Counted from the first letter of the stretch, positions 2,321 through 7,124 are shown. The stretch: 64,000 nucleotides of DNA from Escherichia coli (GCF_044324785.1 NZ_CP172127.1); one strand, 5' to 3'. Notes: generated from the letters alone by a model not told the origin. Program-made: numbers and translations.

Positions 2321-3505
2321 TTAACTTTCCCGGCTGGAGAGTGAATCAATGTAATCAGCGTACCATTGCATCATTTCACGGCGGCCATCGAGATACAGGG
2401 CATGATTATAGGTACCCCTGATGGAATTTTTATCCACATGAGCTAACTGCATTTCAATCCAGGCAGAATTAAAGCCCTGTTCGTGCAGAATGGTACTCAT
2501 GGTGTGACGAAAACCATGACCGGTTGCCCTGCCATCGTAACCGATACGTTTGAGCACCATATTGATGCTGGCTTCGCTCATTGGCTTGTTGATATCACAA
2601 CGTCCCGGAAAAACCAGCCGGTATTGCCCGGAGAAAGTTTTGAGCTGCAGCAGAATGTCAGTGGCCTGTCGTGACAGTGGTACGACATGTTTACGTCGCA
2701 TTTTCATGCGGCTTTCAGGGATTGTCCACAGTGCATTATCAAAATCAATTTCTGACCATTCAGCGGACCGTAGCTCAATGGTTCTGAGACCTGTCAGAAG
2801 CAGCAGATTTGTCGCCATGCGGGTAACAGGACTGCCATGATACTCAGCGAGCTTCCGGAGAAAAACAGGGAGCTCATCTGCTCTCAGGTGGGGGAAATGT
2901 GCAGCTTTTGGCGCCGCCAGCGTACTGGTCAGTTCAGATGCCGGATTGACAGTGGCTCGTCCGGTGGCGATGGCATAACGAAAAATCTGATTACAGTATT
3001 GACGCACCTTACGAAGTTTTTCCAGCGAGCCACGTTTTTCTATGCGGCGCAGAATTTCCAGCATTTCCAGCGGGAGGATATCCGTAACGCTTCGTTTGCC
3101 CAGATACGGGAAAATATCTTTATCCAGCGCTTCCAGTACGCTTCTGGCGTAACTTTCAGACCATGACAAAGATTTATGCTGGTGCCATTCCGTAGCGAGG
3201 GCATGGAACGTATTGGTGGCAGAGATTTTCTGAGTGAGTTTTTCCTTTCGCTTCTTTTCGCCCGGGTCACCACCTTCGGAGATGATTTTTCGGGCATCGT
3301 CGCGTTTGATTCTGGCCTCAGCAAGGGAGACGTCGGGATAGACGCCGAGGGCCAGTTTTTTCTCTTTTCCTGCTATCCGGTATTTAAGCCGCCAGTAGCG
3401 GGCACCCGTGGTTTTTACCAGCAGATATAAACCACGTTCGTCAGAGAGTTTATAGTCTTTTTCTTTAGGTCTGGCTGTTTCGACCTGTCTGGCTGTAAGT
3501 GCCAT
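2321..3505 (-). CDS. Tyrosine recombinase, P4-type phage/island integrase
   Basis: N-terminus MALTARQVETARPKEKDYKLSDERGLYLLV typical of P4-like integrases; C-terminal catalytic region with HGFRHT...R...Y; start set at ATG 3505 (MALTAR), not the longer track ORF; lies 177 bp from a tRNA-Phe 3' fragment. Confidence 0.85.
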   Translation of the reverse strand: MALTARQVETARPKEKDYKLSDERGLYLLVKTTGARYWRLKYRIAGKEKKLALGVYPDVSLAEARIKRDDARKIISEGGDPGEKKRKEKLTQKISATNTFHALATEWHQHKSLSWSESYARSVLEALDKDIFPYLGKRSVTDILPLEMLEILRRIEKRGSLEKLRKVRQYCNQIFRYAIATGRATVNPASELTSTLAAPKAAHFPHLRADELPVFLRKLAEYHGSPVTRMATNLLLLTGLRTIELRSAEWSEIDFDNALWTIPESRMKMRRKHVVPLSRQATDILLQLKTFSGQYRLVFPGRCDINKPMSEASINMVLKRIGYDGRATGHGFRHTMSTILHEQGFNSAWIEMQLAHVDKNSIRGTYNHALYLDGRREMMQWYADYIDSLSSRES

Positions 3506-3569
3506 ATGGGGGCTCCTGAAACTGACTGAACACAATGAGCCCCCACCGGGGCCCCCAATGAACGCTTGA

Positions 3570-3665
3570 TTGAGAGAGAGTTCAGTAGAGTCTGGTGGAG
3601 TTCAGAATGTTCAGATTGCTTGTAACGATGTGATTATACTTGAGTTTCGTGGAGTTCGGGAGATG
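3570..3665. promoter_or_regulatory. Cluster of short GGAGTTC(A/G)G direct repeats between integrase and tRNA-derived core; candidate arm-type integrase binding sites
   Basis: gagagttcag, tggagttcag, tgttcaga, tggagttcggg within ~100 bp; interpretation is inference. Confidence 0.3.
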
Positions 3666-3681
3666 AATCTGGAAGTGAAAG

Positions 3682-3734
3682 TGGTGCCCGGACTCGGAAT
3701 CGAACCAAGGACACGGGGATTTTCAATCCCCGTG
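3682..3734 (-). repeat. 3' fragment of tRNA-Phe (anticodon stem to CCA) = attachment-site direct repeat / island junction
   Basis: Reverse complement reads GGGGATTGAAAATCCCCGTGTCCTTGGTTCGATTCCGAGTCCGGGCACCA, identical to the 3' ~49 nt of E. coli tRNA-Phe (recall); the 5' half of the tRNA is absent, so not a functional tRNA gene. Confidence 0.75.
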
Positions 3735-3782
3735 CCATAATTGGCTGTGTCAGTTGGTTACACACCATTGAGGTGTGTACTA

Positions 3783-4661
3783 ATGAAAATACTGCCCGTT
3801 GTCTCCACAAAAGGTGGCGAAGGTAAATCAACACAATCCGCAAACCTGGCTGGTTTTCTCGCCGATGCAGGTATCCGTACCCTGCTGATTGACGGAGATC
3901 ATGCTCAGCCCACGGCAAGCAACATCTTTCCGCTGACATATGAAGCGTCAGCCGGTCTTTTTGAGTTGCTGATGCGCACGGCTGACCTCAGTCATCCCGA
4001 TAACATCATTTCCCGCACGGCTATCGACGGACTCGATCTGATAGTCTCCAATGACCCTCATGAGCAGTTAAAAACTGCGATGCTTCACGCCCCGGATGGT
4101 CGTCTGCGCCTCCGGAATGTCCTGCAGCATCCGCTTTTTCTGAACAACTACGATGTCATTGTAGTTGATTCTCAGGGAGCACGTTCTGTCATGCTCGAAA
4201 TGATTATGCTGTCGGCCACTGATTCGGTTGTCGGGATGGTCAATCCGGTACTCCCTGATGTGCGCGAGTTTATTCGGGGCACTGTCAATGTTATGGAGAA
4301 CCTGCTGCCTTACCGGGAGCTGGGGATACCCCTGCCGAAAGTACGCACGCTGGTTAACTGCATGGATTATACGGCACTGGCCAGGAAGACGCTGGATGAG
4401 CTGGCCGGAATTATTCAGACCGGTCGTTACAGCAGACAGTTACCTGAAGGTGCGGTTTCCCTTCTTTCCACACAGATTTACGACCTGAATATTTACAAGC
4501 AGGGGCATGCGGCTGGTCAACCCGTACATCGTCTCGAAAAAGAATCCACACGTCGCAGTGATTCCGCGCTTGTCACGATGCACAGCCTGGCCTGTGAACT
4601 CTTTCCTGAGTGGAAACAGGCGTTTGACGGGCTGCTGGCGAACGGGGGAATACGTCAGTGA
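3783..4661 (+). CDS. ParA/Soj-family partition ATPase
   Basis: MKILPVVSTKGGEGKST deviant Walker A (KGGxGKS/T); first gene inside the ICE next to att repeat as in PAPI-1/SPI-7-type elements (recall); start chosen at ATG 3783. Confidence 0.85.
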   Translation: MKILPVVSTKGGEGKSTQSANLAGFLADAGIRTLLIDGDHAQPTASNIFPLTYEASAGLFELLMRTADLSHPDNIISRTAIDGLDLIVSNDPHEQLKTAMLHAPDGRLRLRNVLQHPLFLNNYDVIVVDSQGARSVMLEMIMLSATDSVVGMVNPVLPDVREFIRGTVNVMENLLPYRELGIPLPKVRTLVNCMDYTALARKTLDELAGIIQTGRYSRQLPEGAVSLLSTQIYDLNIYKQGHAAGQPVHRLEKESTRRSDSALVTMHSLACELFPEWKQAFDGLLANGGIRQ

Positions 4662-4749
4662 TTCAGGTTAAGCGAGAACCATGCAGCTCCGTTACCCTGG
4701 CTTATGGACGTTATCAATACCGGACAATATGACGAGAAGGATTAACCCT

Positions 4750-5244
4750 ATGAATAACAGCAGCAATACCACAACCCGTAATACGCTTTCACCCGTTGAG
4801 TCAGCCTGTCATGCCTTACTGGATTTTATTGCCCGGGAAGTTTTTGAGAATAAAGCACCGGAAGAGGACGTCAGGGAACGTTGCAAAGTATTTACAGCGC
4901 TGCTTAACGAAGGATTTAAAGCCCTGCTTGATGAGGCAGGGCTGAATCTGTCAAACCTTCGTAAACAGTGTGAGGAACTGGAATCTCAGATAACCAGACT
5001 TGATTCTCAGTCCGATGCTATTTGTCGCAGAGGTGCTCAAATTGAACGCTTCATTGGTCACCATTTACCTTTTTTCGATTTGAACAAAGTTTTTGATACT
5101 GCCAGTCAGTCATGTGAACCAGCGCCTTCTCCGGCTCAGTCGGCTGTGTCCAGTAGTCAGCCCAGTAATCTGTCAGAGCAAGGGACATCTCAGCGGGTGT
5201 CATCTGTTCAACCGTTGCAGGGAGCCAGTGATGTTGATGAATAA
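4750..5244 (+). CDS. Hypothetical protein (helical N-terminal part, S/Q/P-rich tail)
   Basis: ATG 4750 preceded by AGAAGGA; tail overlaps a convergent minus-strand ORF, so 3' portion uncertain. Confidence 0.4.
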   Translation: MNNSSNTTTRNTLSPVESACHALLDFIAREVFENKAPEEDVRERCKVFTALLNEGFKALLDEAGLNLSNLRKQCEELESQITRLDSQSDAICRRGAQIERFIGHHLPFFDLNKVFDTASQSCEPAPSPAQSAVSSSQPSNLSEQGTSQRVSSVQPLQGASDVDE

Positions 5245-5527
5245 GAGCAAACTTAACGGCTTGTTGAACGCTGATACTGTTATCGTCCAGAAAAAACCAG
5301 CGGCGGCTGTTAATCAGCCAGTGTCCGAGCCAGCAAAGTCGGTAAGCGAGCTTCCGGTCAGCTCCGGGAAAGATTTCTGTTCCCTGGTCAAAGAAGGTTT
5401 TGCACCGTTCCACATCGTCGGTGCTCATACCTCCGACTTTCCAGTTTTCATAATATTTTGCCATGTTGCCATCCTCATCATGGTTGTTATCAATGCCGGA
5501 CGGCAGTTGCTGATGATTTGTGTTCAT
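5051..5527 (-). CDS. Hypothetical Trp-rich protein, antisense to the parA-dnaB operon direction
   Basis: Protein-like composition (…DYWADYWTQPTEPEKALVHMTDWQYQKL…); start chosen at MNTNHQQ; the same-region plus frame is hydrophobic low-complexity. Confidence 0.45.
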   Translation of the reverse strand: MNTNHQQLPSGIDNNHDEDGNMAKYYENWKVGGMSTDDVERCKTFFDQGTEIFPGADRKLAYRLCWLGHWLINSRRWFFLDDNSISVQQAVKFALIHQHHWLPATVEQMTPAEMSLALTDYWADYWTQPTEPEKALVHMTDWQYQKLCSNRKKVNGDQ

Positions 5528-5735
5528 AAGGTATTTCTCTTCGTAAACATGTTGATTATGAGCGCAAATATGCTGTACGTACCTTCTGACCGGGGTCGGC
5601 AAACTTACCGGTCGGAAAATGTACAGACAGTTATGGGCCTTTTATGCCCTGCAACTGTTCGTCCGGCACCCGTTTTCGTTTTTTTGCATGGTGGGTTTGC
5701 TGTGAAACAGGCTCCGTTTGCCCGGGAGGTGGCGT

Positions 5736-7124
5736 ATGTCTGAACGCTATATTCCACGCTCCGTTGATGCAGAGCAGGCCGTGCTGGGCGGCCTGATGCT
5801 CGATAATGAACGCTGGGATGAGGTGGTACTGATGCTCCGGGGGGAGGATTTTTCTCTGGCCGCACACCGGGTGATATTCCGCACCATGTCAGAGCTGGCA
5901 ACCAGCGGTCAGCCGTTCGACCTCATCACGCTGAGTGAGCATATTGAGAAAACAAACAATATTGAGGCACTGGGTGGTTTCGCTTATCTGGCTGAACTCA
6001 GCAAAAATACGCCTTCTGCAGCCAATATTATCGCTTATGCCCGTATTGTTGCTGAAAAGAGCATGCTGCGTCAGTTGCAGGAGACGGGGAATGCGCTGAT
6101 TACGGATGTGGCCGCACCGGATGCGACACCACGCACTGTTCTTGAATCCGCTGAACGTCGGCTCTTTTCACTTTCACAGACTGGCATGTTGCATGAGCGA
6201 TGTGAAGTCAGTCTCACCTCGGCTATGGAGCTGGCGCTGCGTCAACTGGAAGAGGGACTGAACGCCGGCGGGATGACGGGCACGCCCACGGGATTTGATG
6301 AACTGGATAAGATGACCTGTGGTCTGCAGCCCGGCGACCTCATTCTTCTGGCTGCACGCCCGTCTATGGGGAAAACAGCGCTGGGCCTTACCTTCTGTCT
6401 TAATGCCCTGTGTAACCGGACCGATGAAACGGTATTTCTTTTCAGTATCGAAATGTCCCGGGAGCAGCTGATTCTGCGTGTCCTGTCAATGCTCTCCAGG
6501 GTGGAGCTGACACGTCTTCGCAGCAGCATGATGAATGATGAAGAGTGGGCGAGAGTCACGGCAACCATGGGACGCTTCATGAATGAAGCGTCATTCATCG
6601 GAGATGGAAACCGCCTGATAATTGATGACACCTCCTTCCAGACGCCGTCATCGCTGCGTGCCAGCGCCCGTCGTTATGTCCGTCTGTATGGCAGACCTTC
6701 CCTGATAATGGTTGATTACCTCCAGCTGATTCGTTCTCCGGACCAGGAGAACCGAACGCAGGAAATTGCGGAAATATCCCGCGCCCTTAAGGCGTTAGGT
6801 AAAGAGCTGGGATGCCCGGTACTGGCACTGTCTCAGCTTAACCGTCAGGTGGAGCAGCGGGCGGATAAGCGCCCCAATAACGGTGACCTGCGTGATTCCG
6901 GGGCGCTGGAGCAGGATGCTGACCTCATTATGTTTATTTACCGTGATGAGGTTTATAACTCTGGCACGCTGGATAAGGGCGTTGCTGAAATCATTGTGAG
7001 CAAACAGCGGCAGGGGCCAACCGGAACGATACGGGTGAACTTCGACGGCCGCTACACCCTGTTTTCACCGTTTGAACGTGGATGGAATTTTGACCGTGCC
7101 GGAGGAAATGCGTATGTCAATTAA
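5736..7124 (+). CDS. DnaB-like replicative DNA helicase
   Basis: N-terminal DnaB domain (AEQAVLGGLMLDN), Walker A ARPSMGKTALGLTF, Walker B IMVDYLQL; SD GGGAGGTGG before ATG 5736. Confidence 0.9.
   Translation: MSERYIPRSVDAEQAVLGGLMLDNERWDEVVLMLRGEDFSLAAHRVIFRTMSELATSGQPFDLITLSEHIEKTNNIEALGGFAYLAELSKNTPSAANIIAYARIVAEKSMLRQLQETGNALITDVAAPDATPRTVLESAERRLFSLSQTGMLHERCEVSLTSAMELALRQLEEGLNAGGMTGTPTGFDELDKMTCGLQPGDLILLAARPSMGKTALGLTFCLNALCNRTDETVFLFSIEMSREQLILRVLSMLSRVELTRLRSSMMNDEEWARVTATMGRFMNEASFIGDGNRLIIDDTSFQTPSSLRASARRYVRLYGRPSLIMVDYLQLIRSPDQENRTQEIAEISRALKALGKELGCPVLALSQLNRQVEQRADKRPNNGDLRDSGALEQDADLIMFIYRDEVYNSGTLDKGVAEIIVSKQRQGPTGTIRVNFDGRYTLFSPFERGWNFDRAGGNAYVN

Follow-up and report, generated by a model that had tools for sequence, protein, structure and literature searches.

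The genes between parA and dnaB

The locus described here lies in a window of Escherichia coli DNA (the whole stretch analyzed, 64,000 nucleotides [nt] long) that is the left part of an integrative conjugative island of the SPI-7 (Salmonella pathogenicity island 7) type. Between the island genes parA and dnaB are two convergent open reading frames (ORFs), which we call A and B and which overlap at their 3' ends, a third long ORF, C, and a conserved structured element of about 220 nt. An initial annotation, made from the sequence alone, had described a plus-strand ORF with a good Shine-Dalgarno sequence at 4750 to 5244, a minus-strand ORF with a Trp-rich product at 5051 to 5527, an overlap of about 190 bp between the two, and parA and a DnaB-like gene on either side. 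All four descriptions were borne out, the last by Pfam, NCBIfam, and RefSeq; ORF C had been missed. The genes and ORFs of the locus are as follows.

4750..5244, plus strand: ORF A, protein-coding gene of 164 amino acids (aa), as indicated by substitution ratios, homologs, and an AlphaFold2 (AF2) model
5051..5527, minus strand: ORF B, protein-coding gene of 158 aa, Trp-rich, mildly acidic, and all-alpha, as indicated by substitution ratios, family motifs, and an AF2 model
5051..5244, both strands: convergent A/B overlap of 194 nt, counting the two stop codons, with only B's frame under selection
5231..5743, plus strand: ORF C, 170 aa, judged not to be a gene; antisense of B codon for codon, then read-through of a noncoding element; RefSeq WP_064733473.1
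3783..4661, plus strand: parA (ParA-family ATPase), upstream neighbor of ORF A; Pfam AAA_31/CbiA/ParA; WP_000698645.1 (ParA family protein) in an identical E. coli record
5736..7124, plus strand: dnaB-PI, replicative helicase of SPI-7-type islands; NCBIfam NF040583 (dnaB_SPI-7_type), 683.8 bits against a cutoff of 655; RefSeq

Selection on each frame was assessed by the ratio of nonsynonymous to synonymous substitution rates (dN/dS; Nei-Gojobori method). The compared loci were a 99% variant (L012), a lineage of about 75% DNA identity (L005, L007, and L009 to L011, representing E24377A, KE41, C5, A19, and a draft genome), and two much more distant metagenomic loci (L008 and L091). Ratios were calculated for the window against the 75% lineage and, as an independent pair, for L008 against L091.

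Comparative evidence indicates that ORF A is a real gene under purifying selection outside the overlap. Its ATG is preceded 8 nt upstream by AAGGA, and a longer in-frame version begins at 4681. In the first ∼100 codons, which are not shared with B, dN/dS was 0.21 to 0.24 for the window against L011, L009, and L007 and 0.34 in the independent pair, compared with 0.74 to 0.92 for an antisense control (window against the 75% lineage). The synonymous rate (dS) in these codons was about 0.7 to 1.4, and synonymous changes were in excess over nonsynonymous changes (Fisher test, P = 1e-8). Homologs at 55 to 57% and at 31% identity end at the same motif, GASDxxE and a stop codon, and those at 31% keep the length and helical motifs of ORF A; among a collection of 5.8 billion proteins, only close relatives were recovered. 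The AF2 model has a helical core (helices at residues 15 to 33, 38 to 105, and 111 to 121), with residues 126 to 164 disordered.

The same kinds of evidence indicate that ORF B, which begins with an ATG at 5527 and encodes 8 Trp residues, is a real gene under purifying selection and a member of a small orphan all-alpha family. Across its N-terminal ∼92 codons, outside the overlap, dN/dS was 0.26 to 0.29 for the window against the 75% lineage and 0.32 for L008 against L091 (Fisher test for synonymous excess, P = 3e-5). An exhaustive profile search of 1.84 billion representative proteins gave a family of 18 clusters at 50% identity, with members of 98 to 163 aa that have in common the motifs MNTNxQLPSGID at the N terminus, YRLxWLGxWL in the middle, and MTxxEMSLALTxxW further on; relatives at 20 to 40% identity still carry the family motifs. 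The AF2 model of ORF B (predicted local distance difference test score, 78.5) had no fold match in PDB or BFVD, and neither ORF A nor ORF B had a match above noise in Pfam, NCBIfam, PADLOC, or PHROGs. A scan of representative-genome contigs with the B alignment yielded no confirmed relative, those genomes evidently being without such islands.

The B-family gene was opposite in strand to parA and dnaB in all nine loci examined and lay between them in eight; in the ninth (L091), it stands just past dnaB, ahead of a ParB-like gene. Four of the nine loci keep the A/B pair (the window type, the 75%-identity lineage, L008, and L091). Because B has no A partner in the other five (the first cassette of L005/L009, L087, L088, L089, and L090), the comparison indicates that ORF A is an accessory gene, co-occurring with one B subfamily, and that B belongs to the module with or without A.

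Substitution in the overlapping frames

Convergent overlaps of A and B were found in four lineages, with lengths of 194, 170, 179, and 200 nt, among proteins that have diverged to as little as 31% identity for A and about 50% for B. Substitutions within the overlap followed one frame. In B's frame, dN/dS was 0.13 to 0.18 for the window against the 75% lineage and 0.28 for L008 against L091; in A's frame, the corresponding values were 2.4 to 2.5 and 1.83. Where A shares the sequence, B's dS was not reduced (0.83 to 1.03 inside the overlap versus 0.50 to 0.54 outside), and the Fisher test for synonymous excess gave P = 4e-7 for B and 0.99 for A. The differences fell at B codon positions 1, 2, and 3 in the ratio 9/5/20. 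B's wobble position is A's second position, while A's own wobble position had the fewest of the changes (5 of 34). The A-frame dN/dS of 1.8 to 2.5 and the unreduced dS of B argue against a dual-coding overlap. Since substitutions in the overlap follow the minus-strand frame only, the last ∼64 codons of A are carried along as an unconstrained run-on, and the disorder that AF2 predicts for A's tail (residues 126 to 164) fits a run-on unseen by selection.

How readily A's frame stays open was simulated by holding the B protein fixed and choosing synonymous codons at random: for three lineages, A's frame ran the length of the overlap without meeting a stop in 18%, 35%, and 50% of trials. Persistence of the overlap alone is therefore no proof that the overlap has been selected.

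The initial annotation had posed a choice, either one of its two ORFs is spurious or they form a genuine sense/antisense pair, and had suggested comparing synonymous with nonsynonymous substitution in each frame. That comparison supports both frames outside the overlap and only B's inside it. The pair thus stands as genuine, both members being conserved and selected outside the overlap, but the part of A within the overlap is not selected. A spurious ORF does exist at the locus, but it is the unlisted plus-strand ORF C rather than either of the two that were proposed.

The first 99 codons of ORF C are the reverse complement of B codons, C positions 1, 2, and 3 corresponding by coordinates to B positions 3, 2, and 1. 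When B's triplets outside the overlap were read in C's frame, dN/dS was 0.94 to 1.40 against the 75% lineage and 0.85 for L008 against L091, and the Fisher test for synonymous excess gave P = 0.86. Past the start of B, from 5528 to 5668, diversity by codon position was flat (0.197/0.189/0.259 for positions 1/2/3), and the candidate reading of the structured element as coding sequence, the tail of C, was rejected on the flat profile of its interior. A query with ORF C matched 50 database proteins, mostly of 93 to 107 aa, from Escherichia, Salmonella (including Typhi), and Citrobacter; the matches align only to the C-terminal part of C, and their tails are variable and frame-shifted (P0025 to P0060). 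These patterns of substitution indicate that ORF C is an antisense shadow of B and not a gene, and WP_064733473.1 and the 93- to 107-aa "hypothetical proteins" appear to be translations of the noncoding element, sometimes joined to antisense B.

Public annotation of identical DNA is divided. RefSeq, through the Prokaryotic Genome Annotation Pipeline (PGAP), lists A and C (WP_001066088.1 and WP_064733473.1) in most genomes and B alone (WP_001354423.1) in others. Taking B as real and C as not would correct this conflict and improve the annotation of pathogenicity and resistance islands that belong to a widespread family.

Explanations for the gene pair

We consider it very likely that A and B are genuine genes, the two of them lying tail to tail, with only B's frame constrained in the 194 nt that they share, and that C is the antisense shadow of B followed by read-through of the element. 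Several points weigh against this explanation. The case for A, B, and C is built wholly from comparative sequence. The pair is carried by only four, nonindependent lineages, two of which are represented by short metagenomic contigs. A consensus scan found no sigma-70 promoter or intrinsic terminator for A or B, and we infer the transcript architecture. A's frame was open in 18 to 50% of simulations per lineage, so that the overlap need not be selected. B decays in some islands, with an ATA start in C5, a premature stop in E24377A, and truncation in G6/7; from this decay, B is dispensable, at least in the integrated state.

If both genes are expressed as their arrangement suggests, A would be translated from a transcript coming from the parA side, with ribosomes continuing into sequence antisense to the 3' end of B as far as the first stop, and B would be transcribed leftward from the region just before dnaB. 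Because there is no space for a terminator between the convergent genes, rightward parA/A transcripts would run antisense to B over its whole length, those going leftward from B would likewise enter A, and strong transcription from the parA side would damp B, and the reverse. Such transcriptional interference between the parA/A side and B is possible but rather doubtful; no sequence signal requires that step. As to what B does, we can offer guesses of low confidence, which would place it in the island's replication/partition module: a small, acidic, Trp-rich protein might be a protein-binding or establishment factor, or, given the divergent arrangement, a regulator of the adjacent dnaB and parB genes.

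An alternative is that the overlap is itself functional, a selected sense/antisense switch between parA-side and B expression, formed by head-on polymerases or by the A and B mRNAs through their complementary 3' ends. A convergent overlap of 170 to 200 nt has survived in four lineages although both proteins have diverged deeply, A always co-occurs with this B subfamily, and the genes leave no room for a terminator. Nevertheless, we regard a selected switch as unlikely: the rise rather than fall of B's dS in the overlap shows no extra constraint at its synonymous sites, an open A frame is not improbable (0.18, 0.35, and 0.50 per lineage), and other B-family members stand without an A partner. 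It is far less probable that only B is real and that A is a chance ORF held open by B's constraint on the opposite strand. That explanation would account for the A-frame dN/dS above 1 in the overlap, for the scarcity of database homologs of A, and for the omission of A from some PGAP records; it does not account for the low dN/dS of A's first 100 codons, which are free of B, for the Shine-Dalgarno sequence, for homologs at 31% identity that keep length, helical motifs, and stop position, or for the long helix that AF2 models with confidence. Least credible is the majority RefSeq arrangement, a tight parA-A-C-dnaB operon with B as the shadow of C, in which the start of C lies across the stop of A (14 nt shared) and its stop across the start of dnaB (8 nt shared), in a manner resembling translational coupling, and in which C's frame is open in diverged islands and finds 50 database matches, since the same triplets give dN/dS of 0.26 to 0.32 as B and 0.85 to 1.4 as C, the "homologs" match mainly the noncoding element with frame-shifted tails, codon-position diversity is flat beyond B, and distant B relatives keep their motifs.

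The arrangement of two genuine genes with a shadow ORF is an instance of a known phenomenon involving two orphan families, and as such is a modest finding. As in other convergent overlapping pairs and shadow ORFs of bacteria, opposite frames share sequence at this locus, C is open only as the mirror of B, and annotation pipelines keep the ORF of one strand at the expense of the other. In bacteria, tail-to-tail overlaps mostly extend over just a few bases. Unlike these, the A/B overlap spans 194 nt and recurs at 170 to 200 nt in four diverged lineages; it is distinctive in that both partners are selected outside the overlap and one alone inside it. The locus is thus a clean case, found in nature, of a long convergent overlap where the C terminus of one partner is unconstrained.

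A second comparison is with shi of ICEclc, an integrative conjugative element (ICE) in which the locus parA-shi-parB encodes an 85-aa HicA-like growth-arrest protein; SPI-7 is said to lack a shi homolog (PMC6812849). Like shi (PMC6812849), A is a small uncharacterized gene directly past an ICE parA, on the same strand and in the same island superfamily. Unlike Shi, A has 164 aa and is of an all-helical coiled-coil type, and no counter-oriented partner resembling B has been described for ICEclc. A Pfam scan found no HicA_toxin match in A, and the candidate identity of A as a Shi homolog was rejected for its size and fold and in view of what has been published on SPI-7 (PMC6812849). Separately, related islands carry a zinc-ribbon-like ORF of 86 aa, with two CxxC pairs, that overlaps parA at its end (L005, 3276 to 3536, plus strand; L009, 1779 to 2039; L011, 2065 to 2325; L007, 3885 to 4145, minus strand). 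It is absent from this window, has no family match, and occupies the position that shi has in ICEclc.

The setting of the pair is otherwise uniform in direction. The stretch from 4600 to 5750 is 100% identical to the chromosome of strain E19035, an avian pathogenic E. coli, and to several other isolates, mostly from poultry; the locus had no match in the plasmid collection. A ParB-family gene comes next after dnaB-PI. In the annotation of NZ_CP126926.1 (4645000 to 4693413, corresponding to about 3783 to 48000 of the window), nearly all island genes are on the window's plus strand, running from parA, dnaB, parB, an STY4528-family replication protein gene, topB, and ssb through the type IV secretion genes. 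Only ORF B and two or three other small genes, annotated as hypothetical, run the other way. With B, the analysis identifies a counter-oriented orphan family in a replication/partition module of SPI-7-type ICEs whose genes otherwise share one direction.

Three further observations concern the locus and its relatives. Upstream of parA, between it and an integrase gene (2321 to 3535, minus strand), is a tRNA-like fragment at 3693 to 3746 on the minus strand (Rfam tRNA, 22.6 bits, E = 0.14), which ARAGORN did not call and which is annotated at the same spot in related E. coli as "tRNA-OTHER" or "tRNA-Ser." It is probably an attachment-site tRNA remnant, which would place the integrase to its left in a neighboring or tandem element. 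The decaying copies of B are found at L010 3545 (strain C5, ATG to ATA), L005 4677 to 5042 (E24377A, premature stop after 121 aa), and L003 3988 to 4332 (G6/7, N- and C-terminal truncation), with remnants of 32 to 38 codons at L004 ∼4055 and L006 ∼3119; the neighboring 220-nt element is intact at every one of these sites. A second type of minus-strand ORF, of 131 to 132 aa and beginning MNTxxQQLPSGIESEVKYTLQFW, starts at the element's ATG in copies that lie just before dnaB (L003, 5314 to 5712, minus strand; L004, ∼4940 to 5338, minus strand; L007; L010; L084; L085). About 245 nt of it lie opposite the 3' end of a plus-strand hypothetical gene of 300 aa; it is shortened to 76 to 77 aa where that gene has a deletion, and it is a candidate gene or shadow ORF.

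A conserved structured element ahead of dnaB

The element is a more interesting lead than the gene pair and the part that a specialist might find surprising. Its predicted components on the plus strand are as follows.

5489..5710, plus strand: conserved structured element of ∼220 nt, a single copy in the window (nhmmer), identified by covariation and conservation
5494-5510 with 5651-5668: 17-bp closing stem (predicted fold)
5521-5527 with 5558-5564: hairpin holding B's start codon (CAT, 5525-5527; predicted fold)
5572-5593 with 5608-5631: hairpin (predicted fold)
5635-5637 with 5648-5650: hairpin (predicted fold)
5673-5685: T-rich run, starting 4 nt past the closing stem in E. coli copies and missing in divergent copies

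The start of dnaB-PI is ∼50 nt beyond the T-rich run, and in E. coli copies the next plus-strand gene begins within about 45 to 80 nt. B's first ∼12 codons are inside the element, which always has B's start codon and Shine-Dalgarno sequence. Among complete E. coli genomes, the element was found in 219 places in 138 of 5,426 genomes, with up to six copies per genome, all of them chromosomal and none on plasmids. In 15 loci, 24 full-length copies were found, and every one points the same way with respect to parA and dnaB. Two copies each were found in L003 (∼4384 to 4608 and 5670 to 5892), L004 (4043 to 4269 and 5330 to 5553), L005 (3993 to 4217 and 4999 to 5222), and L092/L093, and three in L009.

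The predicted fold is supported by covariation across 24 distinct copies, three of them very divergent. In the alignment, 96.6% of cells were paired, compared with 31 to 42% in slid controls, and 15 pairs had changed on both sides, compared with 4.7 ± 1.4 in shuffles (none of 500 reached 15); such two-sided changes occurred in all six counted helices. In divergent copies, the closing stem is rebuilt from other bases, though its 5' arm encodes B residues 6 to 12: by eye, the alignment has QLPSGID changed to QHESDID with matching changes 160 nt away. In this segment, pairing appears to be maintained while the encoded residues change.

The fold also distinguishes the two strands. The plus strand, which is the sense strand of parA and dnaB and the template strand of B, paired in 1,066 of 1,104 cells and the minus strand in 968 of 1,104; there were 108 G.T cells and 10 A.C cells. 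The alifold consensus energy was −51.8 kcal/mol for the plus strand and −29.3 kcal/mol for the minus strand, and single-sequence z-scores were −5.9 and −4.8, respectively, for RNA minimum free energy and −4.8 and −3.3 for DNA. The ends of the element are inverted repeats 157 nt apart. The element persists at 80 to 97% identity where B has been destroyed or is absent, as in L004a, L006, L086, and Salmonella Typhi SPI-7; its function is therefore independent of B.

Rfam 15 had no match at an E value of ≤1 in 3400 to 6000 apart from the tRNA-like fragment, and only noise at ≤10 in 5450 to 5760. A DNA-pattern search for the element in representative-genome contigs returned 71 chance matches in unrelated taxa, and literature searches found no description of the element or of A and B.

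We put forward tentatively, at somewhat less than an even chance, that the element is a new strand-specific functional nucleic acid structure of SPI-7-type islands, either a single-stranded DNA (ssDNA) initiation or promoter signal or a cis-regulatory RNA that gates dnaB and other genes. As a DNA signal, it would be of the single-strand origin or ssDNA promoter type and act on the displaced or transferred strand. As an RNA, it would be an attenuator, processing site, or antitermination-type element on a long plus-strand transcript ahead of dnaB and other genes, and this fits equally well.

The analogy on the DNA side is with sso1 of ICEBs1, which has three stem-loops and a strict orientation dependence (PMC4595007), and with Frpo/ssi, the ssDNA promoter and initiation signals of F-like plasmids (PMC11541004). 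The likeness is one of architecture: some 180 to 220 nt, several stem-loops, strand specificity, and a fixed orientation. Like sso1 and Frpo, the element can be present in several copies per mobile element and is located among the replication/establishment functions of a conjugative element, and, as in Frpo, its stable, covariation-supported hairpins are on the template (plus) strand of the gene that it precedes, here B. Unlike Frpo, its stems have no evident −35/−10 hexamers by consensus scan and by eye, and a promoter consensus scan of 5486 to 5710 found no promoter-like site on either strand; a canonical Frpo was rejected on these grounds. As to which strand would be transferred, the F analogy and the ICEBs1 analogy point in opposite directions.

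On the RNA side, the comparison is with intercistronic elements such as the Tn916 terminator/antitermination system in an ICE operon (PMC11658703). The element resembles them in its stable sense-strand fold within a long co-directional operon, the T-rich run of the E. coli copies, and the adjoining next gene. Unlike an intrinsic terminator or attenuator, its stem closes a multibranched interior of 140 nt, and it is conserved far beyond what a terminator needs. A plain terminator was judged unlikely: the T-run does not directly adjoin the stem, divergent copies do without it, and the terminator scan was empty.

The conserved sequence could instead be the ordinary double-stranded promoter/operator and 5' untranslated region of B, with the covariation reflecting paired inverted operator sites. 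Its position between divergently oriented genes, its inverted-repeat ends, and the constant presence of B's start codon and Shine-Dalgarno sequence are what such a control region would have. We nonetheless think it improbable, as the strand asymmetry (108 G.T against 10 A.C; −51.8 against −29.3 kcal/mol) is unexpected for protein sites in double-stranded DNA, the favored strand is not B's mRNA strand, every counted helix has two-sided changes, and the element persists at 80 to 97% identity where B is gone, including Salmonella Typhi SPI-7.

If the element is a strand-specific structure of either kind, dozens of 93- to 107-aa "hypothetical proteins" in Escherichia, Salmonella, and Citrobacter would be its translations. 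If it is an ssDNA signal, it would be the first for a Gram-negative ICE and would have the start of a counter-oriented gene, B, built into it. In either form, the element is a concrete candidate for the means by which these ICEs, once transferred, may prime or control their replication and establishment.

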